Notes under the pieces: generated by a model
Seen by the model: the letters and a program-made list of their open reading frames with translations, nothing else
Databases searched by the model: none
Told to the model about the DNA's origin: nothing
DNA from: an uncultured virus (IMG/VR IMGVR_UViG_3300028833_006000)
Taxonomy: Duplodnaviria > Heunggongvirae > Uroviricota > Caudoviricetes
Length of the DNA: 64,000 nucleotides
Direction: 5' to 3' (one strand)
IMG/VR virus record: IMGVR_UViG_3300028833_006000
Position numbers and translations under genes: made by a program
Shown here: piece after piece, positions 13,018 through 63,614 of the stretch
How positions within the stretch are numbered: position 1 is the stretch's first letter
Layout of the letters: each line of letters starts with the position of its first letter

Positions 13018-14364
13018 ATGACATCTATTGAGCCTCTTGCGTCCAGAATGCGACCGACGACACTTGATGATGTCATCGGACAACAACACATTCTCGGACC
13101 GGATAAAATGCTTCGATATCTGATAGAAGCAGATATGCTATCGTCAATTATTTTGTACGGCCCTCCGGGAACAGGAAAAACAACGATAGCCAATGTCATC
13201 GCACACACAACACAGTCGCATTTCAAAAGCGTCAATGCGACCACTTCCGGAAAAAAGGACATACAGGAAGTAATTGATTTTGCACAAAAAGAACTGGAAA
13301 ATAACGCAAAGAAGACAATCCTGTTCATAGACGAAATCCATCGCTTCAACAAGGCACAGCAGGATTATCTGTTGCCATATGTCGAAAATGGGACAGTCAT
13401 ACTTGTGGGCGCGACAACCGAAAACCCTTACTTTGAAGTAAATGGCGCTTTATTATCCAGATCCAATATCTTCGAAGTGAATCCGTTGTCGTCAGAGGAC
13501 ATTGTATCTGCCTTACACAGAATCATAGACAAACTGAATAAAGAAACCCCGACAATCATCTATAATGCCGATGAAGATGCTCTGCAGTTCTTCGCTGATG
13601 CCGCAAACGGCGACGCACGAAATGCAATCAACGGATTAGACCTTGCAATCAGGGTAACACCGGCATTCGGAGCTGCCAATGGTTCAGCGTCCCAAATAAA
13701 TATCACAAAAGATATTGCCATGAACTGTATTCAAAAGAAAATCGTACAGTATGACAAGGATGGAGATAATCACTATGACACCATCTCGGCATTCATTGAA
13801 TCAATGAAACACAGTGAAGTGGATGCTGCGCTATACTATCTGGCAAGGATGATCGACAGAGGTGAAGATCCAAAATACATCGCAAGACGACTCATGGTCT
13901 GTGCATCCATGGACATCGGACTCGCTGATCCAAACGCCTTGAACTTGGCAGCCAGCACATTCCAAACGGTAGAAAAAGTCGGGCTTCCCGAATGTGTATG
14001 GGCATTAGCATTATCGACTGTGTATAACTGCGTTGCTCCAAAAACACATTCTGTTGCAGACGCCTATGAACAGGCGATGGAAGATGTGCAGAATATTCCG
14101 AATGTGGAGATTCCGTACTTCCTCAAAGATGAATCTTATAAATCAGCACATAAACTTGGACATGGTGGTATCACTGACGTATTTGCCGCTCCATTTCACT
14201 ACGATGGCAGTGATTGCATGCCAACGGCGCTTACCGGTCACAAATATTTCCATCCGACGAATTTCGGATATGAAGAGACAGTAAGCAAAGTCATGACGTG
14301 GTACGATGATTACAAAAAGACGCATCCATGCCCTGACTATTATCCGAAAGGAGAAACGCAATAA
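13018..14364 (+). CDS. rarA: Replication-associated recombination protein A (RarA/MgsA), divergent copy
   Basis: PLASRMRP, GPPGTGKTT, FIDEIHRFNKAQQD, GATTENPYF, YDKDGDNHYDTISAF. Confidence 0.93.
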   Translation: MTSIEPLASRMRPTTLDDVIGQQHILGPDKMLRYLIEADMLSSIILYGPPGTGKTTIANVIAHTTQSHFKSVNATTSGKKDIQEVIDFAQKELENNAKKTILFIDEIHRFNKAQQDYLLPYVENGTVILVGATTENPYFEVNGALLSRSNIFEVNPLSSEDIVSALHRIIDKLNKETPTIIYNADEDALQFFADAANGDARNAINGLDLAIRVTPAFGAANGSASQINITKDIAMNCIQKKIVQYDKDGDNHYDTISAFIESMKHSEVDAALYYLARMIDRGEDPKYIARRLMVCASMDIGLADPNALNLAASTFQTVEKVGLPECVWALALSTVYNCVAPKTHSVADAYEQAMEDVQNIPNVEIPYFLKDESYKSAHKLGHGGITDVFAAPFHYDGSDCMPTALTGHKYFHPTNFGYEETVSKVMTWYDDYKKTHPCPDYYPKGETQ

Positions 14365-16258: not shown

Positions 16259-17515
16259 ATGGATAAGTTATTAGACAAGGTTTTTGAGACGCAAAGATGG
16301 ACTGATGCGCTGCGTACAGGTCAGGAAAAAGGCATCGACCGATCCATACTCAAGCAGTTATGTCGTAAATCAGAGCGTGACAAACTAAAGGCGCAAATCC
16401 TGAATGATGATTATGAGATAGCACCGCCGCATGAAGCGCAAATTCCCAAGGATAATAACGAATTTCGTACAGTTTACGTAAATACGGGCATTGACAGAGT
16501 ACTGCTTGCCATCATCAACGATGTCATATTTGAGATGTGTCATGATATGGTGCATCCGACCTGCAAAAGTTATCAGAAAGGATTGAGCTGCGGAAAAACC
16601 GTGCAGCAGATCAGTAAGAGAATAGCCTGCATGCAAACGGACATCATCGGTACCAAAATCGACCTCACAAAATACTTCGATTCAGTTCCTATCCGGTACA
16701 TTGATGCTGTCTTTGATAAAATCACTGACAGGATAGGTGAGTCACATATTCTCACGATGCTGCGAAAATATTACCACATGGATATCGTGCTTGATATGAA
16801 AAAGCAGCCTATCGAGAAATACTCATCGTTGCGACAGGGTTGTGCATTTGCCGCATTTCTTGCCGACGCAAGTCTGTTTGATATAGACGAATGTATCAGC
16901 AAAATGAACGTGGACTATGTCAGATATTCAGACGACATACTCATCATCGGCGAAGAATGGGAAAGTGCTTATGCTTTGTTAAAGGATAAGCTTGGACAGA
17001 TGGAGCTTACGTTAAATCCGAAAAAAGTAGAAATACTCCATAAAAACATATGGTTCAAATTTCTCGGATTTGAGCTCAAAAATGATATGATCACTCTGTC
17101 AAGCAAACGTATCAAGACATTCCAGCACGATATTGAAGAATGTACAATACGTTCACATTTCACCGACCCGGAAGAAATAATACGGTGTGTTAACCGTAAA
17201 TTGTATATGGGACCCGACGGTTACTGTTGGGGAACAAGTGTACTTCCTGTCATCAATTCTGATAAAGACATACAAACAATGAACTGCTTCATTATGGACG
17301 CTATCAGGGCAGCCATGACAGGAAAAACCAACATCGGTGGACTTGGATGTGCGAAAACGCAGGAAAATGGACTTATTCTGCGTGCTAAAGGTCGCAATGT
17401 TAAACACAATAAAGAAAAAATTCCAACTTTAAGCAACTATACCACACTCAAATGTATGCAAAATGCCATTAGGGCATCCAAACAGGCATTTGACTTATTA
17501 GTCGCTACAATGTGA
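16259..17515 (+). CDS. Reverse transcriptase (stand-alone; not group II intron, DGR or canonical retron type)
   Basis: IPKDNNEFRTV, SYQKG, KIDLTKYFDSV, LRQGCAFAAFLAD, YVRYSDDIL, LNPKK, FKFLGF; AGGAG RBS. Confidence 0.93.
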   Translation: MDKLLDKVFETQRWTDALRTGQEKGIDRSILKQLCRKSERDKLKAQILNDDYEIAPPHEAQIPKDNNEFRTVYVNTGIDRVLLAIINDVIFEMCHDMVHPTCKSYQKGLSCGKTVQQISKRIACMQTDIIGTKIDLTKYFDSVPIRYIDAVFDKITDRIGESHILTMLRKYYHMDIVLDMKKQPIEKYSSLRQGCAFAAFLADASLFDIDECISKMNVDYVRYSDDILIIGEEWESAYALLKDKLGQMELTLNPKKVEILHKNIWFKFLGFELKNDMITLSSKRIKTFQHDIEECTIRSHFTDPEEIIRCVNRKLYMGPDGYCWGTSVLPVINSDKDIQTMNCFIMDAIRAAMTGKTNIGGLGCAKTQENGLILRAKGRNVKHNKEKIPTLSNYTTLKCMQNAIRASKQAFDLLVATM

Positions 17516-18386
17516 TTGTCACAAGTCATAACCATAGATAGTATAGTCTGATATTGTGAACAACATAACCCGCATATATACATTCTGCGCTTTATGAGGA
17601 TAATTTCTAAAGTGTGGATGATGTGTATATTCGTATGCTCGAATGTATATATGCTGAATAAGCTTATCAGGATACTGCAGCGTCCCACAGGATGACCTGT
17701 TGGACAGGGACTCCCGTGGATGGTCAATCCGGATACCAGTCAAGACTCTGAAGTGCCAGCTGGCGGAAGCAGATGAATGGGCACGGTGAGATTCTGCCTC
17801 AAGCCGGATGAGAATGATCAACTCCCCGCACGCTGTTGCGATGGAAGGTGAGATGAGTCAGTGCGGCTCGGGCTATCGAGTACAGGCTGATGGAGATGAG
17901 GATGATGCTGTCGGCGATTGGATTGGATCCAGCCGTCGTTCAATCAGAACCAAGGATGGAACTCCGATTGAAATCAGAAGCCAGGCAAAGACATCTGGGT
18001 CGCAGGGTGAGGTGAGCAGAGGAGAGCTGAGAGGACCTCCTCAACCAAGCTCCGCAGAACCTGCAAATCCACCTGCATATCTACCTTCTGGTTCGGAAAG
18101 AAAGAAAGAAGAACTCGAATGGAAGAAGAACTTCGCATCCTGGAATTCGAACTTCTACTGCAGTAACCGAAGAAGATCTTAATCTCTGAAGACCAGGTAG
18201 AAGCCATGCAAATGATGCTGGAGAAATCCTGAATGAGATATGTAGATCTTAAGATAAGCTTTTAGAAATCTGAGCATCTACTCGTATCAAACATCTTCGA
18301 TGTTCTGCTACTTGTAGAATGCATATATCACACATTTATAGTAATATACTATATGTTGTATCAATATCTATGATTAGATAATCACA
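17511..18386 (+). ncRNA. RT-associated large structured non-coding RNA candidate (about 875 nt)
   Basis: Nested long-range complementarity between the 5' and 3' flanks, many internal hairpins, no credible ORF; lies between the RT stop and the next RBS. Confidence 0.7.
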
Positions 18387-18401
18387 AAGGCAGAAAGGGA
18401 T

Positions 18402-19337
18402 ATGCTCATGGTCGATTTTACAACAAGGACTTTGAAGAATCAGGATTCTGTTCTAATCGATCATGGGTCAGCCCGATCGAATTACAAAATTCCAGAAACC
18501 ATCATCACCTGGAATATGTTAGAAAGACTATATACCGTATATGAAACATCTGTTCCTGATAAAAACAGACCGGCATTGTGTACTGCAAAAACAGAATCAG
18601 ATCTGACAATGGCTGACATCATCTTCGGCGCAAAACGATCTAAAGCTCAGGAAGATTTCGAACAGGCCATACTTATCGGTATATTGAACGGTTCGCTTCG
18701 TTATCCTGATAATACAAAATGGTTTTGGCAATCGTCTAAATACAGAAACATGATCATCCCAAAATGGATTTTCGAATCATGCGATAAAACAGTTCATCAT
18801 GCGCGAAACTCCGTTCAAGAAAATGAACTTTGGGATCGAAATCTGGTTGCAAGACGATTAAGACAGATACTGAACACAGATCCGGAAGCCAATATTCCAT
18901 GGAATTCCGATTTCAAAACATGTCTCCTGACCATCAGGGAAGAACTGGCAGAAAAAACGAATATACGATATTTCACAGATGAAATCATAGACGAATTGCT
19001 TCATGCATATATGACTCATCTGCCGAAAAAGTATATCCAGGAAAAAGCCAGAATAGGACAATACATCGCCGCTCTCAAAAAGGCAAAAATGGCATACAAA
19101 AAAGTCAAAGCCATAGACGATATTTTAGCCAATTGCCCTATGTATGCGTATGAATATCAGAATAAAAAATGGATCACAGCCTACGGACATTTCGTGAATC
19201 ATAAGACGATTGCGTTCATATCAGAGTTTATACCTGATGTAAGCATGCCTGATTTTTCCGAGAATACAGACAGGAACGTCGAACAATACGTTCTTTTGAA
19301 TAAAAACGCAATCTGTAAATATGCAGAAATTCATTAG
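18402..19337 (+). CDS. Putative RT-system accessory protein
   Basis: AGAAAGGG RBS directly after the ncRNA closing stem; LERLY..Y..SVP, KWFWQS and KKWITAY motifs. Confidence 0.7.
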   Translation: MLMVDFTTRTLKNQDSVLIDHGSARSNYKIPETIITWNMLERLYTVYETSVPDKNRPALCTAKTESDLTMADIIFGAKRSKAQEDFEQAILIGILNGSLRYPDNTKWFWQSSKYRNMIIPKWIFESCDKTVHHARNSVQENELWDRNLVARRLRQILNTDPEANIPWNSDFKTCLLTIREELAEKTNIRYFTDEIIDELLHAYMTHLPKKYIQEKARIGQYIAALKKAKMAYKKVKAIDDILANCPMYAYEYQNKKWITAYGHFVNHKTIAFISEFIPDVSMPDFSENTDRNVEQYVLLNKNAICKYAEIH

Positions 19338-19353
19338 CAAAGGAGGAAACAAG

Positions 19354-19635
19354 ATGGCACGAACGGTTCTTACAGAAAACGATAATGGCGTAATCTATCG
19401 CTACAACAAAGTACCAAGCAATATGTTCAATTTTTATCTCTTGCGACGCAGAGCATATAAAAATGGAAAATCACTTTGGCATCTTTGCGTGGAAGTAGCA
19501 GCTCCGCCGGCTGGTAAAAATGCACCGGAATGCATTAACACAGAATCCAATTACATCAAGCTGCAGAGTTTTCGTGGTACAAAGACAGAAGCAGCAAAGC
19601 AACTTGACAACATCATAAAGGAATATACATCATAA
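19354..19635 (+). CDS. hypothetical protein
   Basis: AAGGAGG RBS. Confidence 0.65.
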   Translation: MARTVLTENDNGVIYRYNKVPSNMFNFYLLRRRAYKNGKSLWHLCVEVAAPPAGKNAPECINTESNYIKLQSFRGTKTEAAKQLDNIIKEYTS

Positions 19636-20679: not shown

Positions 20680-21951
20680 ATGAAAACACCCCTTGCCGTC
20701 AGAATGCGGCCTCAAACCATCGATGAAATCGTCGGTCAAAAAGACATTCTGGATGAAAACTCATTGCTCACCCAGATGATCAAAAATGACTTACTTTCAT
20801 CTATCATCTTATACGGCCCGCCCGGCACGGGTAAAACTACAATAGCCAATGTTATAGCCAACTCTACCAACGCCAAATTTGCACAGGTGAATGCTGTCAC
20901 AGATGGTAAGAAAGAGTTGGAGAAAATATGTATGCAGGGCAAGAAGGATTTGGAAAATGATGGCACCCGCACAATATTGTTTATCGATGAAATACATCGT
21001 TTCAACAAAGCGCAACAGGATTATCTGCTTCCGTTTGTCGAACAGGGCATTGTTGTGCTCATCGGTGCTACCACGGAAAACCCATACTTCGAAGTAAACA
21101 AGGCTTTGGTGTCAAGATCCACAATCTTTGAGCTAAAGCCTGTTACGGCTGAAGACATGATCATCTGCTTGAACAGAACACTGAACGATGCCGAGAGAGG
21201 ACTGAAAGAAAATAATCTCGTCATTGATGATGATACAAAAATGTTCATCGCAGAACAGGCAAATGGCGATGTGCGCAGAGCACTATCACTTTTGGAACTA
21301 TCTGCTGTGGTCGTCGGTGACGGTGGAACTATCACCGTTGATACAGTCAAATCGATCATTCAGAAACCAAATCTGACATATGATAAAGACGGCGACAAGC
21401 ACTATGACACCATCTCAGCCTTCATTAAATCGATGAGAGGCTCTGATCCTGACGCCGTATTGTATTATCTTGCTCGAATGATTACGGCCGGCGAAGATCC
21501 AAAATTCATAGCAAGGCGGATAATGATAGCCGCATCGGAAGATGTAGGCAATGCTGATCCGATGGCTATCGTCGTTGCTACCAATGCTGCACTTGCTGCT
21601 GAACGGATAGGGTGGCCCGAAAGCCAGATCATACTGTCACAAGCGGCACTGTATGTCGCTATGGCTCCAAAATCAAACAGTGCCTGTACAGGTATTGAAA
21701 AAGCTATGGCTTACGTTGCCGACCATCCATCAAACGATGTTCCGACTCATCTTCAGGATGCCCATTACAAAAGTGCAGCCAAATTGGGACACGGAATTGG
21801 CTACAAGTACCCACATGATTTTCCGAATCATTGGTGCGAGCAGAATTATCTGCCGGACTCCGTAACCGAATATTTCTATCAGAATAGTCATCAGGGTTAC
21901 GAAGCGATACAGGCAAACTATCAGAACAGCATCCGAAACTCTGATTCATGA
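20680..21951 (+). CDS. rarA: Replication-associated recombination protein A (RarA/MgsA), canonical copy
   Basis: Walker A/B, SAFIKSMRGSDPDA, ASEDVGNADP, HLQDAHY..A.KLGHG.GY.YPHD. Confidence 0.96.
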   Translation: MKTPLAVRMRPQTIDEIVGQKDILDENSLLTQMIKNDLLSSIILYGPPGTGKTTIANVIANSTNAKFAQVNAVTDGKKELEKICMQGKKDLENDGTRTILFIDEIHRFNKAQQDYLLPFVEQGIVVLIGATTENPYFEVNKALVSRSTIFELKPVTAEDMIICLNRTLNDAERGLKENNLVIDDDTKMFIAEQANGDVRRALSLLELSAVVVGDGGTITVDTVKSIIQKPNLTYDKDGDKHYDTISAFIKSMRGSDPDAVLYYLARMITAGEDPKFIARRIMIAASEDVGNADPMAIVVATNAALAAERIGWPESQIILSQAALYVAMAPKSNSACTGIEKAMAYVADHPSNDVPTHLQDAHYKSAAKLGHGIGYKYPHDFPNHWCEQNYLPDSVTEYFYQNSHQGYEAIQANYQNSIRNSDS

Positions 21952-22128: not shown

Positions 22129-24651
22129 ATGATTAAGATTTGTCGCAAAAGAGACGGTCGTCATGCGGAATTTGATTCCAAGTTCATCGCAGCCGCCATT
22201 GACAAGGCGCTGAAGGCAACTAACGAATCAGGAAAATCTGCAGAAGACATTGCAAAAACTGCGGTTCTCATCATCGAACAGGATTATGTTGACGAGGATG
22301 GAATCGTTGATGTAGAGGAATGCCAGGAGGCAGCAGAAAGAGCCCTTTTCGTGAACGGATTGTTCACAACCCTTATGGCGTATCATGAATACCGTAAGGC
22401 TCACAGTGAAGTCCGTAAACTTGAGGTTAAGAAGGACTGGGCCAGATCAGTTACGGAAGGCTATGTCGGAGCCCCTGTCATCGATGATATCACTGATATG
22501 ACATCCGAAAGCATCCACGGTGCTGAAGTCAAGAAAGACGGACAGAGCTGGCGTGTAAAGCAGAATGCGTCTGTCAGCTACTCCATCGGAGGAAATGTCC
22601 TTAACCAGTCATCTATGATCACAGAAGAGTACTGGCTTGATACACTTTACGATCCTGAAATCGCTGCATACCATCGTCAGAAGAGATTCCATCTCCATGA
22701 CCTTGGCTGGCTTGGCGGTTACTGTGCAGGATGGAACCTCAAGACACTCATCGAGAGAGGTATCACCGGCGTACCCGGAAAGATCTCATCAGGTCCTGCT
22801 CATCACTTGCAGGCACTGTGTAATCAGATGACTAACTTCCTCGGAATCATGCAGAATGAATGGGCCGGCGCTCAGGCGTTCTCATCTTTTGACACATACC
22901 TTGCTCCATTTGTTAAGGCAGACAATATGTCTTACAAGGAAGTTAAGCAGGCAATCCAGTCGTTCGTATTCGGTATCAATACACCGAGCAGATGGGGCTG
23001 TCAGGCACCGTTCTCAAATATCACTCTGGATTGGGTGATTCCTGAAGACCTTGCAAACATCCCTGCTATCGTAGCCGGTAAGCCGTTAGAAATCGACGGC
23101 AAGATCATCACTTATGGTGATTGTCAGGCTGAAGCCGATATTGTCAACAAGGCGTTCATGGAAACAATGATCGAAGGTGATTCCGAAGGTCGTGGATTTG
23201 CTTATCCTATCCCGACATACAGCATCACCACTGATTTCAAGTGGGATGATACCGAGAATAACCGTCTCCTCTTTGAAATGGCCGGCAAATACGGCGCACC
23301 TTACTTCTCCAATTATATCAACTCTGATATGAAGCCGAGTGACGTAAGATCAATGTGCTGCCGCCTCCGCCTTGACCTCAGAGAGTTAAGAAAGCAGAAC
23401 GGTGGTAACTTCGGTGCAGGTGAAAACACAGGTAGTATCGGTGTTGTTACAATCAACCTTCCTCAGATCGCATATCTTGCATCAAACGAGGACGATTTCT
23501 TCAAGCGTCTTGAAGATGTCATGAGCGTAGCAGCAAGATCACTTGATACAAAGCGTCGTGTCATCACAGCGTACTACAACGCGGGCCTGTATCCTTATAC
23601 CAAGGCTTACCTGCCTAACGGATATAAGGATCACTTCAGCACAATCGGACTTGTCGGCATGAATGAAGCTTGCCTCAATGCAAAGTGGATTCAGGCTGAT
23701 CTCACAACCGATAAGGCTCATGCATGGGCTAACAAGGTACTCGATTTCATGAGAGAAAAGTTGTCCGACTTCCAGGTGAAGTATGGATGCCTGTTCAACC
23801 TCGAAGCAACACCTGCAGAGTCAACTGCATACAGATTTGCCCGCTATGACAAGGAAACATATCCTGATATCATCACAGCCGGCGCAGTCGGTGGTGATCC
23901 GTACTATACAAACAGTACACACCTTCCTGTTGGAGCAACAGACGATGTGTTCGAAGCACTTGATATCGAAGATGATATGCAGTGTAAATACACATCCGGT
24001 ACAGTGTTCCACTGCTTCCTCGGCGAGAAGATGCCGAACTGGAGAAGCGCAATGCAGCTCGTACGTACTGTAGCTGAGAACTATAAGCTTCCGTACTTCA
24101 CTTTATCACCCGTATACTCCATCTGTGAGGAACACGGATATCTTGAAGGTGAACAGAAAAGCTGCCCGTGTTGTGGAAAGCCTACGGAAGTCTACTCCCG
24201 TATCACAGGCTATTACAGAGCTGTTTCCAACTGGAACAATGGTAAGGCTTCTGAGTTCAAGGAGAGAAAGTCCTACGATATCGGAAATTCTTTCTCAATG
24301 CACAACAAAGAAATCGATATGACCCTTGATGATTCCGACAACGCAGCAATCGAAGCACTTGAGATGGATTCTTCTCACATTCCCCTTGGAAGAGAAGATC
24401 AGATCCAGTCTGGAACAGAATATCTCTTGTTCAAGACACACACCTGTCCGAACTGCCAGATGTTGGAAAACATGAATGTGCTGGAGCATTACCCTGTGCA
24501 AAAGATCTATGCTGACGATGAGGAAAACAAAGATCTTGTCGAAAAGTATGGAATCTGTTCAGCACCGACACTTGTTGTCAAAACCGGCAATGATATCAAA
24601 TCATACACCGGTGTCAGCAACATCATCGGTTTTGTGAAAGCAGATGAATAA
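22129..24651 (+). CDS. nrdD: Anaerobic (class III) ribonucleoside-triphosphate reductase with ATP cone and C-terminal glutaredoxin-like domain
   Basis: N-terminal KRDGR ATP cone, HLHDL, YCAGW, SMCCRL, ATPAES, CEEHG...CPCCG, YSRITGYY glycyl-radical motif, C-terminal TCPNC...SAPTLV. Confidence 0.96.
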   Translation: MIKICRKRDGRHAEFDSKFIAAAIDKALKATNESGKSAEDIAKTAVLIIEQDYVDEDGIVDVEECQEAAERALFVNGLFTTLMAYHEYRKAHSEVRKLEVKKDWARSVTEGYVGAPVIDDITDMTSESIHGAEVKKDGQSWRVKQNASVSYSIGGNVLNQSSMITEEYWLDTLYDPEIAAYHRQKRFHLHDLGWLGGYCAGWNLKTLIERGITGVPGKISSGPAHHLQALCNQMTNFLGIMQNEWAGAQAFSSFDTYLAPFVKADNMSYKEVKQAIQSFVFGINTPSRWGCQAPFSNITLDWVIPEDLANIPAIVAGKPLEIDGKIITYGDCQAEADIVNKAFMETMIEGDSEGRGFAYPIPTYSITTDFKWDDTENNRLLFEMAGKYGAPYFSNYINSDMKPSDVRSMCCRLRLDLRELRKQNGGNFGAGENTGSIGVVTINLPQIAYLASNEDDFFKRLEDVMSVAARSLDTKRRVITAYYNAGLYPYTKAYLPNGYKDHFSTIGLVGMNEACLNAKWIQADLTTDKAHAWANKVLDFMREKLSDFQVKYGCLFNLEATPAESTAYRFARYDKETYPDIITAGAVGGDPYYTNSTHLPVGATDDVFEALDIEDDMQCKYTSGTVFHCFLGEKMPNWRSAMQLVRTVAENYKLPYFTLSPVYSICEEHGYLEGEQKSCPCCGKPTEVYSRITGYYRAVSNWNNGKASEFKERKSYDIGNSFSMHNKEIDMTLDDSDNAAIEALEMDSSHIPLGREDQIQSGTEYLLFKTHTCPNCQMLENMNVLEHYPVQKIYADDEENKDLVEKYGICSAPTLVVKTGNDIKSYTGVSNIIGFVKADE

Positions 24652-49480: not shown

Positions 49481-49541
49481 ACCCATATTATTGAGAAATA
49501 CCAAAATCATATATGCCACAACGATGAATGGGAGAGCAATA

Positions 49542-50582
49542 ATGAATAAGACAAGTACAAAAGCGAAGAGAGTAGACATCTTCGATGATCAAACCATTGA
49601 TACAGATGATCTACCCTGTGAACCTGACGATGACGCATTGATGCTGCTCGAAGTCGAAATTGAAGAAGAAAATGATGATGATATGAGCGACATTGAAGGC
49701 TCATCGTCGAATGATCCGGGTACGATTGACCTGATACGCCAGTACTTTGCCGAAATGGGAAATTATCCATTGCTGTCACCGGAAGAAGAAATCAAACTGA
49801 CACATCGATATCACCAAGGTGATACATCAGCCTTTGACAAATTAGTGCAGTCAAACTTGCGCCTGGTTGTCAATATTGCCAAGAAATATACCAATCACGG
49901 TCTTGATTTTGCCGACCTCATTCAGGAGGGCAATATCGGACTGATGAAAGGTATAGATAAGTTTGATCCTGCCAAGGGCTTCAAACTTTCGACCTATGCT
50001 ACATGGTGGATCCGGCAAAACATCACGCGTGCAATTGCTGACCAGGGCAGGACCATACGTGTGCCTGTACATATGTCAGAAAACGTGTACAGAGTATCAA
50101 ACGCAAAGAAACACCTCGTTCAGGAAATTGGCCGGGAGCCTACCGTTGAAGAGATTATTGCATATCTGAATACAGTAACACCTCCGAAGAATGACGGTAA
50201 GCCTTTTTGGACAAAGGATAAGATCGATGAGATTACCCAATTATCCGAAACACCGGTGTCACTCAGTACACCAATCGGCGAAGATGGTGATACTCAGTTG
50301 GAAGATTTTATCTCCAATGACGATTTTACCCCGGAAAGTGAAACTGACAACATAGCATTGCATGACGCATTATTTCATCTGATCGACAAACTGAGCAATC
50401 GTGAAAAAGATATCTTAATGAAACGATTTGGCTTCATTGGCGGTCGGGTCTACACCTTGGAAGAAATCGGCGCGGAATATAACATCACTCGTGAACGAAT
50501 ACGGCAGATCGAATCCAAAGCTTTGAAATTCCTGAGAAGTCCTAAAAACAAAGAATATCTGAAAGATTTTGCTTCCAAATAG
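49542..50582 (+). CDS. RpoD/SigA-like sigma70 factor
   Basis: YPLLSPEEE, NLRLVVNIAKKY, DLIQEGNIGLMK..DKFD..KGFK.STYATWWIRQ.ITRAIADQ.RTIRVPVHM, TLEEIG..Y.ITRERIRQIE.KAL. Confidence 0.95.
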   Translation: MNKTSTKAKRVDIFDDQTIDTDDLPCEPDDDALMLLEVEIEEENDDDMSDIEGSSSNDPGTIDLIRQYFAEMGNYPLLSPEEEIKLTHRYHQGDTSAFDKLVQSNLRLVVNIAKKYTNHGLDFADLIQEGNIGLMKGIDKFDPAKGFKLSTYATWWIRQNITRAIADQGRTIRVPVHMSENVYRVSNAKKHLVQEIGREPTVEEIIAYLNTVTPPKNDGKPFWTKDKIDEITQLSETPVSLSTPIGEDGDTQLEDFISNDDFTPESETDNIALHDALFHLIDKLSNREKDILMKRFGFIGGRVYTLEEIGAEYNITRERIRQIESKALKFLRSPKNKEYLKDFASK

Positions 50583-50714
50583 CGCCGGAAGAGAGTGGAA
50601 ACAGCGATTTCCATCTATTCGTTTAATCCGCGTTAAACGCAGAGATATTGACAAATGTCGAGAAAAATGCTTAAATTATCTTGATATATCAATAAATCTA
50701 CGGAGGTGTTTCTT

Positions 50715-51734
50715 ATGAGCAGTCATGCTGAAACAACAAATCATTACAAAGATAAAACAAGATACCTGCTGCAAGATATGCCAACTTATGTTAAGGATTT
50801 CATCAGAGAAATTCACAATGATACTGCGGAACGCACGCAGTATGAATATGTCTTGGACATACGACATTTGCTGGAGTATCTTGCGGTTGGTAACGAATTG
50901 ACGTCCATCACGCCGCAGAACCTCGATAATCTGACCAAGGCTGATTTCGAAGAATATTTCGAAAAACTGGAACATTACAGTCAAAACGGCAAAGACGCAT
51001 ACAACGGCCGAACATCCATAAAACGGAAAATGTCGGCTGTACGTAACTTCTTTGACTATATGTACCAGGAAGGTCAGATTTCCAACAACGAAATCCGCAA
51101 AATTCCAATGCCGAAAATTGCGGACAAACCCGTTGTATTTCTGAATCAGGATGAAGTCAAACGACTGATCAAACTGGTCAAAACCGGTGACGGAATGTCC
51201 CGGAAACAGCAGGATTACAATAAGATCCAGTCCACCAGAGATCTTGCACTCATCTTCACTCTCCTATCAACCGGCATTCGTGTATCAGAATGTGCCGAAA
51301 TTGATCTTGATGATGTGAACATGAGTGATTCGAGCATACGAATCGTTCGTAAAGGCGGTGATGCATCCCTCGTCTATTTCTCCGATGAGGCTTCATCGTA
51401 CCTTGCTGACTGGCTTGACTACAGAAAAAACATCAAGGGTATTGATGATGAACCTGCCCTCTTCATCTCGTCTCAAAAGCGCAGAATCAGCGTGCGGGCT
51501 ATTCAGAATCTTGTAAAGAAATATGCTGTGAGAGTGATTCCTCAAAAAAACATCACACCTCACAAACTCAGAGCCACGTATGCCACCCAGTTATATGAAG
51601 CGACCGGTGACATCTATCTCGTGGCTGAAAATCTCGGACATAAAGATATTCAGACCACAAAAAAGCATTATGCAAATATCTCCAATGCCCATAAAGAAAA
51701 AAGCCGGAACATCATTTCATATGATTCCGATTGA
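50715..51734 (+). CDS. Tyrosine recombinase (XerC/D-like)
   Basis: RD..I..LLSTGIRVSE, RKGG, TPHKLRATYAT, LGHKDIQTT..HY. Confidence 0.93.
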   Translation: MSSHAETTNHYKDKTRYLLQDMPTYVKDFIREIHNDTAERTQYEYVLDIRHLLEYLAVGNELTSITPQNLDNLTKADFEEYFEKLEHYSQNGKDAYNGRTSIKRKMSAVRNFFDYMYQEGQISNNEIRKIPMPKIADKPVVFLNQDEVKRLIKLVKTGDGMSRKQQDYNKIQSTRDLALIFTLLSTGIRVSECAEIDLDDVNMSDSSIRIVRKGGDASLVYFSDEASSYLADWLDYRKNIKGIDDEPALFISSQKRRISVRAIQNLVKKYAVRVIPQKNITPHKLRATYATQLYEATGDIYLVAENLGHKDIQTTKKHYANISNAHKEKSRNIISYDSD

Positions 51735-57997: not shown

Positions 57998-58012
57998 ATA
58001 ATCAGTGCAAAC

Positions 58013-58064
58013 AAATACCCCCTTCAGATAGCCCATGGCAGCATATCTGTAAGGGGGTATTTTT
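58013..58064. terminator. Bidirectional terminator at the strand switch
   Basis: AAATACCCCCTT/AAGGGGGTATTT stem. Confidence 0.75.
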
Positions 58065-58113
58065 ATATGATAACGGCTTTGGCCGTGCCGGACACGTAGC
58101 ACGTGGCCGATTA

Positions 58114-58725
58114 TCAACCTCCTGGATATTCTATTGTATCACTTGATTCCGGTGTTGTCTGCAAATCATTAACTAATTCATCTGCCGTGCGATTTGTATC
58201 TCCGGATGGCTGTGATACTGCTTCACTTTCCGGTGCAGCGGTCTGCGTATCAGTAGTCGTAGTTTCAGTAGGTGTAGCCTCAGTAACTGTGGCTGTAGGA
58301 TCAACAACGCCATGCAGATACTCATTTCCACTTCGTTCATGCAGATTATTCTCGGCTGCCTGTTTATCATTATACCAGTGAACGCCCTGTGAAACGCCAT
58401 ATGCCATAGTTGCAAATATAGTAACACGCTTGCATATAGTCTTCCAAGGTGAATCCGTATCGACGTCATCATCGACGCCACGAATATGATTGATGATTCC
58501 CGGTGCCGTACTTACACCAAAAGCGCCTATGAGACCAGCAAGCCCAGGCTGTAAACTTTTTCCTGTACCTGCTTCTACGGCATTATTGATCATTGTGCCG
58601 ACGCCATATCCGATGCCAGCTTTCAGACCAAACTTTGCCATAGAACCAATACCTGATCCGATGCCGGAAAATGTCTCGCCGGCGTATTGTGTAATTTTCG
58701 CACCTATATTGCTAAATGCTCCCAT
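58114..58725 (-). CDS. Gly-rich membrane protein with T/E-rich tail
   Basis: AAAGGA RBS; glycine-zipper-like segments. Confidence 0.7.
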   Translation of the reverse strand: MGAFSNIGAKITQYAGETFSGIGSGIGSMAKFGLKAGIGYGVGTMINNAVEAGTGKSLQPGLAGLIGAFGVSTAPGIINHIRGVDDDVDTDSPWKTICKRVTIFATMAYGVSQGVHWYNDKQAAENNLHERSGNEYLHGVVDPTATVTEATPTETTTTDTQTAAPESEAVSQPSGDTNRTADELVNDLQTTPESSDTIEYPGG

Positions 58726-58747
58726 GTGCGATAATCCTTTCTATCAA

Positions 58748-59167
58748 TTATACAAAAGGCAAATCATCCGGATTTTCGACATCAACCGGTACAGCAGGAA
58801 CTTCCCGCTGTGCATTTGTTTGTGAATCCAGATCAAGATTGTTCGCCTTATCATTCTTGACTAACTGTCTTGACTGATTATAGAGTTCCTTAAACTTTCT
58901 GATGCCCATTTCCTCAGTGTGAAAATGTACCTCATCATCATAAAAACGTACATGAGCCTTTATATTTTCCTGAATAACAAATGTAGTCAGCTTTGGATTA
59001 GTCGGAACGGACTTCTGCTGAACACCATATCCCTGAGGAATAAATGCTTTTGCCCATCCCGTCGCAGAATTCTCACTACGGAAACGTATACCGTATTGAT
59101 TCTTATATGTATCCACGCCCCAGACATTTGAAATCGTCACCATTTGTGACTGTGGTTTCTTAGGCAT
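58748..59167 (-). CDS. hypothetical protein
   Basis: GGAGG RBS; ends in DDLPFV (SSB-like acidic tip). Confidence 0.7.
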   Translation of the reverse strand: MPKKPQSQMVTISNVWGVDTYKNQYGIRFRSENSATGWAKAFIPQGYGVQQKSVPTNPKLTTFVIQENIKAHVRFYDDEVHFHTEEMGIRKFKELYNQSRQLVKNDKANNLDLDSQTNAQREVPAVPVDVENPDDLPFV

Positions 59168-59181
59168 ATCACAAACCCTCC

Positions 59182-60129
59182 TTATGCTTCTAATCCGTTC
59201 TGTGGTTCGGTGCTACCTGCCTCAGCGATCACGGGTAATTCTCTATCTGAATAAAGCGCTTCCGTCGGAAAACCTTCGACATTCTTCAAAGATTCGATAA
59301 ACTTCTTTTCGCTCGGCTTGAGAGGCACATCACATGCAATCTTGGCAAGTTTATCAACATATTCATTGCCTTCGATACCTGTGTGGCCTTTTGTGTGGAC
59401 AAAATCTACAGCCAAGCCTGTCATGCGCACAGACTTGACAAAATCGAGATAGTCCTTCGTGTACGGTGTGCCGGGCTTATACACTCCGGAAGGAATGTCG
59501 CCGATATGTCTCAAGTCATACCCAATTGTAACAGAGTCATATTTACCCTGTCTATATCCCTCAAGAGCATAATTCAAAGCGACTTTTGCGCCCAGGATCT
59601 CGCTCTCAATATTACGACCGCCATACTCGCATTTAATCTTTCCGGTAAAAATACGAGGATTCTTTTCATCGGCTACATATACACCATAGCCGGCTTCGTT
59701 CGTATTCTGATTATAACTTCCATCGGTAAAGATCCACACATGATTACCCGCATATTCTTTCAAAAGTGGGTTATCCGCAGACTCTTGCTCGGAAACTTCA
59801 GTCTTTGTCGGAACAACGCCTGTCTCGACATATTTTTCGGCTTCAGACTTATACTCAAAGCTCTTATACTGAGCACCAGGAAAACCGTTTACCTGCTCCT
59901 TGCATGTATCCCAGTCAAGATAGACTCCGGGTACACGGCCTTTATGTACGGCATAAAACTTGCCCTTTGCTTCGGTTGCGCCTAAATATTCCTGTGCTGA
60001 TGCTTCATCGGGAAAACCCTTGTACTGGGCACCGGCGAAGCCATCGACCTGAGCTTTACAATCATCCCACGATGTGTATAATCCCGGTGTGCGCCCTTTC
60101 AAGACCGCATAAAACTTATTCTTTGCCAT
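59182..60129 (-). CDS. rnhA: Ribonuclease HI with two N-terminal hybrid-binding (Cauli_VI) domains
   Basis: 2x FYAV..GR.PG.Y..WD.CK.QV.GF.GA.YK; FTDGS, ESE, HTKGHTG..GNEYVDKLA. Confidence 0.92.
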   Translation of the reverse strand: MAKNKFYAVLKGRTPGLYTSWDDCKAQVDGFAGAQYKGFPDEASAQEYLGATEAKGKFYAVHKGRVPGVYLDWDTCKEQVNGFPGAQYKSFEYKSEAEKYVETGVVPTKTEVSEQESADNPLLKEYAGNHVWIFTDGSYNQNTNEAGYGVYVADEKNPRIFTGKIKCEYGGRNIESEILGAKVALNYALEGYRQGKYDSVTIGYDLRHIGDIPSGVYKPGTPYTKDYLDFVKSVRMTGLAVDFVHTKGHTGIEGNEYVDKLAKIACDVPLKPSEKKFIESLKNVEGFPTEALYSDRELPVIAEAGSTEPQNGLEA

Positions 60130-60260
60130 AAAACTCTCCTCTATACAAAACAAAGGATCACCGGAGGCTATGTCTCGGCAATCCCCTGTTTATCATATCG
60201 AATAAAAATTTCTATCAGTGATATTTTATTCAGCTGATCACCACACGGTATTGATCTGTA

Positions 60261-61037
60261 TTAAGACAATTCTGTCTGTGCAGAGATGCCATCAGTTCCG
60301 TCCATCTGGATATCAGCTGTGAGTTCAGCTGCGGCTGCATAACGAGCATCACCTGTCATTGCATCAGGTGTTGCAGGTGCGGCATAACGAGGATCACCTG
60401 CCATTGCATTAGGTGCTGCCGGAGCCTCATAACGAGGATCACCAGCCATTGCATTAGATGTCTGCGCAGCCTGTCTGCCCTCGTAAACTTCCTCTCTCAC
60501 AGAAGAAGGTGTATTTTCCGGCAAATCAGCTGTTGCTGCCATAACCTGTTCCTGATATGTAGGACCTTCAGCAGCTTCTGTTTCCTCGTGCTGAACATCA
60601 CCCATCTCAGCAGCCATTGCCTTGATCTCAGCAAACTTCTGACCAAGACTTGTCTTGGCGAAAGCATCCTTGATGCTGGCTGTCACATCATGCACACTGT
60701 CTTCGATCTTATCGATACCGTGAGCTTCCTTCCAGTCAGCCACAGCTTCAAATTTATTTGCGATAGCCAACTTCTTTGTATCTTCACCGAATGCATTGGT
60801 CTGAAGAGTCTGAACTTCCTCATTGTACTTCTCCTCAGTAATAGCACCGTTCTCCAGCGCATGGTCAAGATCGTTCTTGCTGTCCACGTATTCATTGATA
60901 GCGCGAATAGGCGCCATTATATGATCATACGCTGCAGTAGCCTTGCTATATGCAGATGCGATCGTTGTGGTAACGCCACCAGCCTTTGGTGCTTCTGCTT
61001 CTGTAGTTTCAGTTGTCTGATTAGTATTGTCAGCCAT
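60261..61037 (-). CDS. hypothetical Ala/Glu-rich protein with C-terminal repeats
   Basis: AGGAGG RBS; own TTGACA promoter upstream. Confidence 0.75.
   Translation of the reverse strand: MADNTNQTTETTEAEAPKAGGVTTTIASAYSKATAAYDHIMAPIRAINEYVDSKNDLDHALENGAITEEKYNEEVQTLQTNAFGEDTKKLAIANKFEAVADWKEAHGIDKIEDSVHDVTASIKDAFAKTSLGQKFAEIKAMAAEMGDVQHEETEAAEGPTYQEQVMAATADLPENTPSSVREEVYEGRQAAQTSNAMAGDPRYEAPAAPNAMAGDPRYAAPATPDAMTGDARYAAAAELTADIQMDGTDGISAQTELS
60338..60455 (-). repeat. 3 x 45-bp coding tandem repeat (NAMAGDPRY..P..P)
   Basis: CATAACGAG at 60338, 60383 and 60428. Confidence 0.85.
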
Positions 61038-61241
61038 TGTATATTACCTCCTATGGATTATCTACTCATCTTAAAAAATCATAACACAAATATGTGTGGT
61101 CATTTTTGACTGTCTATATAATATATAATATGGCGTGGCTTGTCAAGAGATTTTCCAAAAAAAGTTGAAAAAAATTCAAATCATTATAAAAAATAACACC
61201 GCTCATATCTCATTTCATCGAGAAAAGTGGTGTTATTTGTT

Positions 61242-61937
61242 TTAAGATTCGATCTGTTTTTGTATGTTCTCTGACCTCAAATCATATATCTTTTGCCTAA
61301 AATCCTGCGGCAATACCACACTCACCAGAACCTGTTCCCGGTTAGATATACGTTTATATCGAAGCTCAAAATCTGATCCAAATTCCAATCGGTCATCAGT
61401 TGGTTTGATATACTCTATCCGTAAGCCATTGATGGCAACTTCAATCGCATCACGCTTCTCATCATAATGTGTTTCAAATGTTCGCGTGGTCAATGTTTCC
61501 GCATTTGCGACCAAAGCCTTATGCTTCCTCGCTTTATATGCTTCCATCGCCCACAATATCAACATGAATACGCCATATAATACATAAAATACCACAAGAA
61601 ATAATATGACTATGACCAGCGCTATAACTGGTATGGCCGGTTCTACAGCTGACATGATCTTTGTCATCGCAGGCGGCAGATTTGGTGAAGAATATATCAA
61701 TCCTATGCCTGATAGCATGCACAGGCTTCCCAGAATCAATTTAACCAGTGGAATACATCGTGATACATATCCATATGATAAAAATGCTCGCAATATTCGA
61801 AATACTGCAAGCATAATCAGGATTGCTCCTATAGATATCAACAATGCACCGCCGAATACAGTTGGCTGTTGAAACAATGAATATGCATCTCCATGCAATA
61901 ACTCATCCGAAGGAACAATAGTCTGTGTCAATAACAT
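61242..61937 (-). CDS. Membrane protein (3 TM)
   Basis: Three hydrophobic helices. Confidence 0.65.
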   Translation of the reverse strand: MLLTQTIVPSDELLHGDAYSLFQQPTVFGGALLISIGAILIMLAVFRILRAFLSYGYVSRCIPLVKLILGSLCMLSGIGLIYSSPNLPPAMTKIMSAVEPAIPVIALVIVILFLVVFYVLYGVFMLILWAMEAYKARKHKALVANAETLTTRTFETHYDEKRDAIEVAINGLRIEYIKPTDDRLEFGSDFELRYKRISNREQVLVSVVLPQDFRQKIYDLRSENIQKQIES

Positions 61938-61948
61938 ATCAGGGTATA

Positions 61949-62197
61949 TTACACAGACTCCATCTTCGCCTTCAACTTGCCAAGCATCTGGTCTTTCTTT
62001 GCAGGATCGCCAACGGTCTCATCGACAACAGTTGCTGCTTCTGCATAAGCTACCACATTCGACATGAGCTTGCTCATCGCAGGATTCTTCTGAGCTGCTG
62101 CTTCATCAGCCATCCTCTCGAAAGCCTGTCCCAAAGGCGTAGATCTGTCAATCTGCATATTCTCCTTATCAATAACGATATTATCTGTTCCTGGCAT
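61949..62197 (-). CDS. hypothetical protein
   Basis: AAAGGAG RBS before ATG at 62197. Confidence 0.65.
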   Translation of the reverse strand: MPGTDNIVIDKENMQIDRSTPLGQAFERMADEAAAQKNPAMSKLMSNVVAYAEAATVVDETVGDPAKKDQMLGKLKAKMESV

Positions 62198-62289
62198 ATT
62201 AGTCGCTCCTTTCAGAATAAATTGTTCCAACACTCAAAATATAGCAAAAATCTCCTCATTTGTCAACAGATTTGGCATAGATCCAAGCT

Positions 62290-62553
62290 TTACAAATCAG
62301 AAATTTCCACAACAGGCTCTGACCTGCTGACATCTGCCATCTGCTCCAAATGTGCTTTCGTCTGAACCAAAGCCAAAATCGTACGCACAACGTCATCATC
62401 CTGAGGCTGATATGATTTCAAATATGATATGGCATCTGACACAGCTTTGATATCACGCTCAAATGCCATTGCACCAGATAATTCCCTCGGTGCTGCATCA
62501 TGTATGATCAATGGCTCATCTAAATTTATCACAGGTTCTGTCATCGAACTCAC
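62290..62553 (-). CDS. hypothetical protein
   Basis: Overlaps the upstream stop by 4 nt. Confidence 0.55.
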   Translation of the reverse strand: MSSMTEPVINLDEPLIIHDAAPRELSGAMAFERDIKAVSDAISYLKSYQPQDDDVVRTILALVQTKAHLEQMADVSRSEPVVEISDL

Positions 62554-63374: not shown

Positions 63375-63431
63375 ACAAAAAACAACACCTCCTGCTCATT
63401 CATAACGGAGGGCAATCAAACATCCCGAACC

Positions 63432-63614
63432 TTATGGTTCAAGAAAAAGATCAGGATCAACCATTTCATCAATGTTGTCCCAGTCATCATATTCATCTTC
63501 CTGCTCTGCTGCTTTCAGGTCGCCGGCATGGCCATCACTCAAAAACTTATAAAACAGATATGCGACCATTCCAATAAAAGAAATAACCAAACAACATTTG
63601 AAAAAATTCTTCAT
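63432..63614 (-). CDS. small membrane protein with acidic tail
   Basis: GGAGG RBS, one TM. Confidence 0.6.
   Translation of the reverse strand: MKNFFKCCLVISFIGMVAYLFYKFLSDGHAGDLKAAEQEDEYDDWDNIDEMVDPDLFLEP

Follow-up and report, generated by a model that had tools for sequence, protein, structure and literature searches.

The locus described here lies in a 64-kb stretch of DNA (the window, meaning the whole of the DNA analysed) and is a real, well-formed, divergent sub-lineage of the described UG27 family of reverse transcriptase (RT) systems, not a new system. The favored reading, to which we assign a probability of roughly 0.75, is that of a UG27 system with a divergent layout of two proteins and one RNA, located among the DNA-metabolism genes of a large phage of the ruminant gut and yielding a short cDNA. 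By analogy with the published systems, the RT and the fused accessory protein would bind an RNA scaffold, DNA synthesis would begin at the 3' motif, and the adjacent 3' hairpin (18271-18330) would most likely be copied to give one single-stranded DNA (ssDNA) of ~60 nt.

A sequence-only reading of this DNA had termed the locus a candidate uncharacterised RT system. This did not stand, as Mestre et al. 2022 (NAR 50:6084, PMC9226505) describe the UG27 RT along with a putative ncRNA and two clusters of partners, and report UG27 as lacking defence enrichment, while cDNA synthesis with a YSAA control is described in the September 2026 preprint of Li et al. (bioRxiv 10.64898/2026.09.22.753630). In this preprint, arrays of ~150-nt RNA units give rise to ssDNA hairpins of 50-100 nt, which are RT dependent and derive from the hairpin in the centre of every unit. 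Synthesis begins at the AUC of AUCN7UANAG and is abolished in a YSAA mutant or on deletion of either accessory gene. The preprint gives 14,118 loci with ncRNA units, and its authors call the role of the cDNA unknown. The general idea of the sequence-only reading, that the adjacent RNA would serve as template together with a downstream partner protein, fits the family so described. The template region that it put forward, 17511-18386, is putative, and the anti-defence, exclusion, or replication roles that it suggested are conjectural for this locus.

The features were assigned as follows, with comparisons made to two related loci, L082 and L084.

16259..17515 (+): UG27-class reverse transcriptase, 418 aa, YSDD (ORF, PADLOC, Pfam, motif alignment)
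17514..18383 (+): whole structured ncRNA domain (z −5.18, terminal stem, covariation)
17514-17530, 17550-17555, 17561-17566, within 17514..17566 (+): closing stem, 5' strand (covariation)
17536-17549 (+): small conserved hairpin with UAUAG, within the 5' strand of the closing stem (covariation)
17570..17657 (+): conserved 5' hairpin, ~90 nt (helices 6-8)
17690..18257 (+): variable centre, ~550 nt, containing the non-genic ORF 17808..18182
18271..18330 (+): covarying 3' hairpin (helices 2-4: 18 pairs, 5 compensatory)
18327..18341 (+): exact match to the published initiation motif AUCNNNNNNNUANAG, the sole one in the gap
18339-18351 (+): small 5-bp hairpin of the 3' scaffold, in 18339..18383
18353-18358, 18363-18383 (+): closing stem, 3' strand (covariation)
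18402..19337 (+): accessory fusion protein of 311 aa (309 aa from the likely start at 18408; PADLOC, HMMs, hhalign)
19321..19635 (+): 104-aa gene of no known family (61-63% identity and synteny in L082/L084)

Reverse transcriptase and locus

The family of the RT was deduced from profile searches. PADLOC RT_UG27 covered the whole protein (E 1.9e-170, 565 bits; residues 1-418 aligned to profile positions 2-420 of 420), the next-best PADLOC profile being RT_UG26 (E 2.2e-38), and Pfam RVT_1 was matched with E 3.3e-21. The UG27 label suggested in the sequence-only reading was thereby confirmed. The same reading had reported an intact 418-aa RT with QG, YSDD, and FLGF motifs, and these (Q193 G194, Y223 S224 D225 D226, and F268 L269 G270 F271 in the numbering of the window protein) were invariant in 31 aligned RTs; judged from its sequence, the RT is catalytically intact. 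It had also proposed placing the RT in a phylogeny. In a quick IQ-TREE tree of 65 rows, the window RT was nested among canonical UG27 RTs in a 3-row clade with 100% SH-aLRT and a long stem branch of 1.07. Profile and tree alike identify the RT as a member of the UG27 (class 2 UG/Abi) family. A search found 3991 relatives; identity to the RTs of L082 and L084 was about 71.5%, and the best IMG/VR RT was 53% identical.

The module is ordered on the (+) strand as RT (16259-17515), gap (17516-18401), and 311-aa gene (18402-19337), an order of RT, ncRNA, and accessory gene(s) that is shared with UG27 systems. Between the end of the upstream ORF (16241) and the RT start lie 17 nt, and the long non-coding segment directly after the RT, followed by a same-strand 311-aa gene, was found as described, with a gap of 886 nt. 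The gap had been called the longest ORF-free one. It is indeed the largest intergenic stretch of the 64-kb window (by a listing of ORFs of at least 90 aa) but is not literally ORF-free, as three mechanical ORFs of 96-124 aa overlap it at 17437..17727 (−), 17519..17821 (−), and 17808..18182 (+). The last of these, of 124 aa, had no family match in Pfam, PADLOC, NCBIfam, or PHROGs. Relatives of ~95% identity carry 1- and 2-nt indels within it, and for two relatives the substitutions were distributed 21/18/11 over the codon positions. A gene at this position was ruled out by the frameshifting indels and the absent codon periodicity, and none of the three overlapping ORFs is a gene.

The neighbours are of phage type (ligase, primase, helicase, sigma factor, integrase, NrdD, UDG, and a head-protease-like gene), and the sources of the locus are ruminant-gut runs. 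Neighbour genes and source runs both point to carriage by a gut phage, among replication genes, as is known for UG27 systems; UG27 is among the commonest RT families of gut phages. L082 was found in a MAG labelled Lachnospiraceae. Examination of homologous loci, which the sequence-only reading had also proposed, found the RT-RNA-fusion order kept in both L082 and L084, within a maintained synteny of UDG-..-RT-RNA-fusion-small gene-endonuclease-MgsA. GenBank phages gave no close relatives of the locus and one weak match to the small accessory only (32% identity), and an IMG/VR scan with three patterns for the scaffold motifs of the clade gave 0 matches for each. The region was covered at 100% identity by a 29-kb contig from an RNA library (run X1), which may represent DNA carry-over. 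Neither promoter-like sites (16 versus 12.5 ± 4.0 expected) nor terminator-like sites (4 versus 3.3 ± 1.8 expected) were above chance.

A fused accessory protein

The accessory gene is listed from 18402, and 18408 is the likelier start from sequence comparison because an identical database protein has 309 aa and relatives begin MVNF. Residues 2-123 matched PADLOC RTas346 (E 6.9e-21), and our own HMM of the small accessory (sORF, Mestre cluster 346) gave 77.6 bits on the 311-aa protein, placing the small accessory as a domain at the N terminus of a longer protein. The 378 matches from an exhaustive profile search were mostly sORFs of ~110-170 aa aligning to positions 2-122; four longer matches, of 369-635 aa, were fusions of sORF with the large accessory (bORF). 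The profile of window-type proteins aligned with one such natural fusion (P0133) over 270 columns in hhalign (99.8% probability, E 1e-27), and P0133 in turn matched the bORF HMM with E 1.8e-30. The homology of the C-terminal half to bORF was deduced through these fusion intermediates, the direct hhalign comparison with separate bORFs being weak (probability 8.7%, E 0.0038). A separate bORF gene (about 300-360 aa) was not found at the locus, the bORF HMM giving no match at E≤1 among all ORFs of at least 50 aa in the 64-kb window while matching 40 ORFs in the related loci.

These comparisons indicate that the 311-aa protein comprises the small accessory (2-123) and a shortened, diverged large accessory (~165-280) in one chain. 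The 309-311-aa form is conserved across 8 clusters at 42-70% identity. The locus therefore resembles UG27 systems in its small-accessory homology and, via the fusion intermediates, in its large-accessory homology, but differs in having two proteins rather than three, sORF and shortened bORF forming one 309-311-aa chain. In the main text of the preprint, the words "fused" and "fusion" are absent (bioRxiv 10.64898/2026.09.22.753630). The AF2 model of the 311-aa protein had a mean pLDDT of 72.7, and Foldseek found no match to it in the PDB at E≤1e-3. The complex prediction for the RT (alignment A1) with the fusion protein (alignment A4) gave a score of 0.01 and a mark of 0.32, values that speak neither for nor against a complex. 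As a single chain, the fusion could reveal how the two accessory proteins are arranged relative to each other.

Two points had been overlooked in the sequence-only reading, namely, that the 311-aa protein is a fusion of both known accessories and that the RNA departs from the published unit-array layout.

Architecture of the RNA

The proposal that the gap contains a structured RNA was supported by its predicted fold, which at −282.6 kcal/mol compared with −248.8 ± 6.5 kcal/mol for shuffled sequences (z −5.18), 0/20 shuffles being as good. The domain extends from the RT stop codon to just 5' of the ribosome-binding site of the next gene. Its terminal stem was predicted separately in the window, L082, and L084, where it spans 843-875 nt, and helices 1, 2, 4, and 5 of this closing stem contain 25 pairs, 9 of them changed on both sides. 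The block 17514..17566 is 84-86% identical to L082/L084. The 5' hairpin was likewise predicted in all three (helices 6-8: 35 pairs, 6 compensatory). The 3' hairpin is preceded by a conserved AAUCUGA and followed directly by the start-like motif; a three-sequence alignment, A7, disagrees with alignment A5 in this hairpin. In its analysis the count of pairs changed on both sides, taken over the whole structure, was reached in 0/500 shuffles, and slid controls gave 1-2. Across the 69 scaffold pairs, 96% were paired and 15 were changed on both sides, a value reached in 0/500 shuffles and compared with 0-3 in slid controls, for a covariation set of three sequences, two of them close, from which the tested structure was itself derived.

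From this covariation, the RNA is deduced to form a single closed domain of ~870 nt in which a stem of ~25 bp joins the 5' and 3' scaffolds. Between L082 and L084, divergence was 0.014 in the 5' scaffold and 0.037 in the 3' scaffold, compared with 0.17-0.28 at 4-fold sites of the neighbouring genes. The alignments thus mark the scaffolds, of ~150 nt on the 5' side with its own hairpin and ~125 nt on the 3' side, as strongly conserved.

The published initiation motif AUCNNNNNNNUANAG had 15 matches in the window, one of the 15 lying in the gap. This gap copy of the family's initiation-like motif reads AUC-N7-UAUAG and lies in the 3' scaffold, 3' of the covarying hairpin, a further likeness to UG27 systems. 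Because L082/L084 have UUU/AUU in place of the motif's AUC, the start site is uncertain. A clear UUYA stop motif was not conserved at one position; L082 and L084 carry a GGAAUUCAG element directly 3' of the 5' hairpin, similar to the 5' UUYA context of canonical units. A second UAUAG lies at 17542 in the 5' scaffold, and L082/L084 contain a further UAUAG (3846/3847) beside an AAUCUGA-like element and a long hairpin.

Canonical units were sought with a model, R1, which is our own and not one of the authors' covariance models. It was built from 46 canonical units and was sequence-only because RNAalifold returned no base pairs on the canonical-unit alignment. With default filters, R1 gave 57 matches in 13/19 sources searched, with each of 12 untrained loci having 3-7 units and the thirteenth 2, versus 0 canonical units in the window, L082, and L084. 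With filters off, one partial match was obtained in the window (18297-18349, model positions 84-136, 10.5 bits, E 9e-4) but the L082/L084 gaps remained without a match; the 3' scaffold as an nhmmer profile gave 5.3 bits (E 3.2). None of the three gaps (window, L082, and L084) contained an internal periodic repeat. The array of ~135-167-nt units (UUYA ... AUCN7UANAG plus scaffold stem) that marks UG27 systems was therefore not found at the window locus. Instead of such an array, the RNA is one ~870-nt domain with a long-range closing stem, an additional 5' hairpin of ~90 nt, and an unconstrained centre of ~550 nt. In both layouts conserved scaffolds surround variable sequence.

The centre was only 14-48% identical to L082/L084 and had no match among phage records. 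Its divergence of 0.195 is about the 4-fold-site rate, and hypermutation or diversification of the centre was rejected on this ground. The window centre folded no better than chance (z +0.30), and that of L082 was modestly stable (z −2.46). Of the 37 listed variant sites in a ~95% identical relative, 16 break predicted centre pairs, 8 are one-sided changes keeping the pair, 0 are compensatory, and 13 are unpaired. Between L082 and L084, 36 centre pairs were broken, 1 was compensatory, and 11 were one-sided and kept, slid controls being no worse. Conserved fine structure in the centre was accordingly not supported. The gap length is nevertheless similar across lineages (886 nt in the window, 847 and 863 nt in L082/L084), and in each of the three lineages the GC content of the centre (0.45-0.51) exceeds that of 4-fold sites (0.37-0.40), with 0.51 versus a GC4 of 0.40 in the window. 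From these data the centre is non-coding and without detectable structure; its sequence evolves neutrally, but its length and raised GC are retained.

Template, alternatives, and related systems

By analogy with the canonical central hairpin, the 3' hairpin (18271-18330) is a candidate template. The short-cDNA model leaves the constant length and GC enrichment of the centre unexplained. These two properties are what would be expected if the same system made a long product, the stretch of ~17660-18326 (roughly 0.65 kb) templating one long single-stranded cDNA; the centre would then be retained as copied, its sequence free to drift with length and GC held, as is observed across lineages whose RTs share 71.5% identity. 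The GGAAUUCAG UUYA-like element 3' of the 5' hairpin in L082/L084 fits such a product as well. Long products are made by other class 2 UG RTs. An expectation of long products, as for those RTs, is also noted in the preprint, where all five UG27 systems tested gave only 50-100-nt products (bioRxiv 10.64898/2026.09.22.753630). The latter result counts against a long cDNA here, as do the covarying hairpin directly 5' of the start-like motif, which resembles canonical units, and a centre that is unconstrained in sequence and in predicted structure. A long product is on balance unlikely. If it were made, it would be a product class so far unreported among UG27 systems, with one fused accessory protein serving it, and would widen the range of the family.

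Somewhat less likely again is descent from a canonical multi-unit array by decay, in which inner units lost their scaffolds, or an array of several clade-specific units too divergent to be recognised. In the former case the 5' scaffold would be a relic of the first unit, the last unit still working would be the 3' scaffold, and the centre would be a remnant without function. The gap length of 847-886 nt does equal that of a canonical array of 5-6 units (the gaps of canonical UG27 loci are 666-1353 nt), the centre evolves at a neutral rate, and the additional UAUAG copies at 17542 and in L082/L084 could be vestiges of units; gain and loss of units, and clades whose units escape the authors' model, are reported in bioRxiv 10.64898/2026.09.22.753630. 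A neutral remnant, however, would be expected to shrink or vary in length and to lose its GC enrichment, the absence of a periodic repeat from all three gaps speaks against an array, and covarying pairs join the 5' scaffold to the 3' one, which is not the case for neighbouring canonical units.

That the locus is not of UG27 type at all, being a group II intron remnant, a retron, or a diversity-generating retroelement (DGR), is so improbable as to be negligible and was refuted by profile cutoffs, Rfam, gene spacing, and repeat search, since the RT matches to group II maturase (TIGR04416, 113.8 bits versus a cutoff of 300) and retron St85 (NF038233, 43.6 versus 235) are sub-threshold and usual for any RT, the UG27 profile is ahead by >130 orders of magnitude, Rfam revealed neither a group II intron domain nor a retron nor any other genuine family, only 17 nt separate the upstream gene from the RT, no TR/VR pair was present in 64 kb (best off-self match of the gap, 21-27 nt, E 0.15), and the substitutions of the X5 relative were not adenine specific (A>G 11, G>A 10, T>A 10, T>C 8, and others). 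The sequence-only reading had come to the same conclusion on these three classes. The sole Rfam match at the gathering threshold, the eukaryotic SNORD36 (31 bits versus a cutoff of 30), was deemed spurious.

The favored short-cDNA system would nonetheless share with retrons an RT accompanied by its own structured RNA next to it, a hairpin giving rise to a short ssDNA, and a required accessory protein. It differs from them in the clade of its RT, in the absence of an Rfam retron RNA at the locus, in an RNA that lies downstream of the RT, in unrelated accessory proteins, and in being carried by a phage, not in a defence island. With DRT2, DRT3, and DRT9 (UG2, UG3+UG8, and UG28), it shares membership of the UG/Abi superfamily and an RT-adjacent ncRNA as template or cofactor. 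Those are bacterial defence systems with long or homopolymeric products, and the window RT scores 3.6e-22 with Drt9, 8.5e-15 with Drt3a, and 3.7e-11 with Drt2, versus 1.9e-170 with UG27. As a natural minimal version, the locus could reveal the essential parts of the published three-protein, multi-unit system and could show the contribution of the scaffold rather than that of the template.

The 104-aa gene that follows the accessory gene (19321..19635) had no family match in Pfam, PADLOC, NCBIfam, or PHROGs. Related ORFs of 118-144 aa were observed directly 3' of UG27 RTs of a different clade (6 loci; best E 3.6e-8), and from these sequence relationships this gene is possibly a further member of the module.

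Family assignment of the reverse transcriptase locus

The reverse transcriptase (RT) locus is a real, well-formed UG27 system. The open reading frames (ORFs) that define it are as follows.

ends 16241, ORF preceding the RT
16259..17515, +, RT ORF, 418 aa
18402..19337, +, accessory ORF after the gap, 311 aa

Since the RT ends at 17515 and the next ORF starts at 18402, the gap is 886 nt. The intact RT, large noncoding gap and downstream 311-aa partner described in the sequence-only reading were confirmed by the ORF listing, the motif alignment and the fold of the gap, which was far better than that of shuffles (z -5.18, 0/20 shuffles as good). The RT matched Pfam RVT_1 (E 3.3e-21), and its QG, YSDD and FLGF motifs did not vary among 31 aligned family members. 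The PADLOC model RT_UG27 matched over the full length with an E of 1.9e-170, compared with 2.2e-38 for the runner-up, RT_UG26, which bears out the UG27 label of the sequence-only reading. The exclusion of group II intron and retron types also held. The RT fell far short of the NCBIfam cut-offs for group II intron maturase, retron St85, Drt2, Drt3a and Drt4. In a quick IQ-TREE analysis of 65 RTs, those of the window and the related loci L082 and L084 formed one clade (100% SH-aLRT, stem of 1.07 changes per column) placed among the canonical UG27 clades.

As the locus is a UG27 system, its family and general mechanism are already known, and the description "uncharacterised" was not sustained. 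Mestre et al. (2022, PMC9226505) report that UG27 is frequent among predicted viruses of the human gut and shows no defence-island enrichment; two protein clusters without a known domain go with it, and a putative ncRNA follows it. In its main text, the preprint of Li et al. (bioRxiv, 24 Sept 2026) reports three UG27 proteins (a small sORF and a large bORF in addition to the RT) together with arrays of sequence-diverse units of ~135-167 nt (82,314 units in 14,118 loci), some clades having units missed by the preprint's own model. The product was lost in a YSAA mutant and also when either accessory gene was deleted. Canonical UG27 has separate sORF and bORF genes and a tandem unit array in the gap, whereas the window's clade has both proteins in one 309-311-aa chain and a single large closed RNA. 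Neither this combination nor the words "fused" and "fusion" appear in the main text of the preprint, and relative to that text the locus is new in its fused accessory and single closed RNA.

The accessory protein

The N-terminal part of the 311-aa protein was assigned from a PADLOC RTas346 match at residues 2-123 (E 6.9e-21) and from the sORF HMM, built on the ~150-aa genes, which gave 77.6 bits at residues 3-123. The bORF HMM, which found 40 ORFs in related loci, gave no match in the 64-kb window. The 311-aa form was kept in 8 clusters (309-311 aa, 42-70% identical). Its profile gave a weak match to separate bORFs that was nonetheless colinear, residues 167-277 falling on bORF columns 125-267 (probability 8.7%, E 0.0038). 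Searched exhaustively with HMMER, the fusion profile returned 378 hits, mostly sORFs covering positions 2-122.

Four proteins, P0133 (369 aa), P0138 (406 aa), P0141 (543 aa) and P0240 (635 aa), carry, after an sORF domain, a region that matches the bORF HMM (E 1.8e-30, 2.3e-25, 4.8e-53 and 9e-47, respectively). These are natural single-chain fusions of the small and large UG27 accessories, 369-635 aa long; the P0141 cluster has 15 members, on contigs of up to 183 kb. The window-type profile aligned to P0133 over 270 columns (2-279 on 2-305; probability 99.8%, E 1e-27). Since the natural fusions match the bORF HMM and the window-type profile aligns to one of them, the 311-aa protein is a compact sORF-bORF fusion, its bORF part being shortened and fast-evolving. 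An AF2 model (pLDDT 72.7) gave a mixed N-terminal and a helical C-terminal domain, and a fold search with it found no PDB match.

The gap RNA and its variable centre

In the gap alignment of the window, L082 and L084 (A5), ~170 nt at the start and ~110 nt at the end were conserved, the best blocks reaching 84-86% identity, and the middle was 14-48% identical. A terminal stem spanning 843-875 nt was found in all three sequences, each folded alone, as were a 4-bp hairpin and a 5' hairpin of ~90 nt. On A5, 96% of cells were paired across the 69 pairs of the scaffold and 15 pairs had changed on both sides (slid controls 0-3; 0/500 shuffles reaching the observed value), this covariation coming from three sequences, two of them close, on a structure that RNAalifold derived from the same alignment. 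Read in the same way, the 3' hairpin and centre-closing stem had 26 pairs, 89% of cells paired and 8 pairs changed on both sides (slid 1-2; again 0/500). The long-range stem within the scaffold accounted for 25 pairs, 9 of them compensatory, and the hairpin at 18271-18330, just upstream of the motif, for 18 pairs and 5 compensatory changes.

The centre (17690..18257) is a neutrally drifting, GC-enriched, constant-length filler kept within a strongly constrained scaffold. Between L082 and L084 its divergence was 0.195. Four genes nearby gave 0.17-0.28 at their 4-fold sites, and the 5' and 3' scaffolds gave 0.014 and 0.037, respectively. Its GC content (0.51, 0.47 and 0.45) exceeded that of the pooled 4-fold sites (0.40, 0.40 and 0.37), and total gap length was kept (886, 847 and 863 nt). 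In relatives ~95% identical to the window (public runs X5, X6 and X7), differences were concentrated in the centre and included indels of 1-21 nt. Among those listed for X5, 34 of 40 substitutions fell in 17701-18201, and stretches of RT coding sequence (216 nt) and 5' scaffold (185 nt) had 3 each; of the 37 RNA sites among these, set against the window MFE structure, 16 broke a pair, 13 were unpaired, 8 kept a pair by a one-sided change and 0 were compensatory. The L082 MFE structure applied to the L084 centre was no better than slid controls (36 pairs broken, 11 one-sided pair-keeping, 1 compensatory). Compared with shuffles, the window centre alone had no extra stability (z +0.30) and that of L082 a modest one (z -2.46). 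The centre had no second copy within the window and no match among GenBank phages.

Mechanical ORF calling places three ORFs of 96-124 aa across parts of the gap, none of them supported as a gene. The 124-aa ORF was rejected, having no family match and carrying 1- and 2-nt indels in the ~95% identical ruminant-gut-run relatives; substitutions between the two more distant relatives showed no codon periodicity (21/18/11). The sole Rfam match at threshold in the gap, at 18206-18278, is to the eukaryotic C/D snoRNA SNORD36. It exceeds the gathering score of 30 by one bit (31; E 0.59 over the window), falls where the phage RNA is variable and is almost certainly due to chance. In run X1, a metatranscriptomic library by its record, a 29-kb contig was identical to the window over 17300-18600, the RT-RNA-accessory region; this could be from active infection or DNA carry-over.

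Proposed mechanism, canonical arrays and neighbourhood

The locus belongs to UG27 and its catalytic motifs are intact; its accessory is fused, its RNA scaffold is closed and covarying, and a single initiation-like motif lies beside a covarying hairpin. By homology with tested UG27 systems, the RT and fused accessory would bind the scaffold, and the RT would prime at the 3' motif and copy the adjoining hairpin into one short ssDNA. This mechanism has two weak points: the motif's AUC is absent from L082 and L084, and no stop motif is conserved in a fixed position. A long cDNA spanning the centre, where length is kept while sequence drifts, is an unlikely alternative to the short product.

Canonical arrays were plain in L001, L047, L059 and L068-L081, with the motif repeated every ~150-190 nt; the exact initiation motif occurs once in the window's gap, at 18327. 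A sequence-only Infernal model built from 46 canonical units gave 57 matches in 13/19 sources, all 13 outside the training set, with 3-7 tandem units in 12 of these and 2 in L062. It recognised no unit in the window, in L082 or L084, or in L020, L041 and L053, the three loci searched from a 21-member clade of UG27-like RTs. With filters off, one partial match appeared in the window (18297-18349 on model positions 84-136, 10.5 bits, E 9e-4) and nothing in the L082 and L084 gaps; an nhmmer profile of the 3' scaffold agreed (5.3 bits). A decayed or cryptic array is a less likely alternative still.

The 21-member clade (426-431 aa; L016-L044, L008 and L056; e.g. L020:3501-8287) had no sORF or bORF HMM match within 3.5 kb and may be another noncanonical UG27 layout. 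Its gene order is RT, ~120, 215, 109, 72, ~398 and 144 aa, and the window's 104-aa protein has relatives among the 118-144-aa ORFs that immediately follow the RT.

Among 81 UG27 loci taken from IMG/VR (RTs 43-53% identical to the window RT), the RT was usually followed by a gap of ~370-1350 nt and then by genes of ~150 aa and ~310-360 aa, in that order. Alignment searches with the fusion protein recovered three loci: L083, which matches the window exactly across 8933 bases; L082, from a MAG labelled uncultured Lachnospiraceae, where its contig is 199 kb long; and L084, a metagenome contig. Gene order was the same in the window, L082 and L084.

Identity of L082/L084 proteins to those of the window
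RT: 71.5%
Fusion protein: 43%
104-aa gene: 61-63%
Endonuclease: 61-62%
Downstream MgsA: 83%
UDG: 75%

The window neighbours are phage DNA-metabolism genes, comprising two MgsA-like ATPases, UDG, a non-specific endonuclease, NrdD, ligase, primase, helicase, a sigma factor and an integrase. The two MgsA/WRNIP-type AAA+ paralogues lie on either side of the RT module, at 13018-14364 and 20680-21951 (Pfam MgsA_C 3.6e-48 and 1.6e-66, respectively), and close conservation in L082 and L084 is limited to the downstream one, the upstream one being 50% identical. NrdD (22129-24651, 840 aa) is an anaerobic ribonucleotide reductase with an ATP-cone and weak thioredoxin-like matches at its C terminus (residues ~766-831). 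The phage sigma-factor and tyrosine-integrase genes are adjacent at 49491-51734. From ~58 kb (about 58000-64000), GC and AT skew go negative and long ORFs move to the minus strand.
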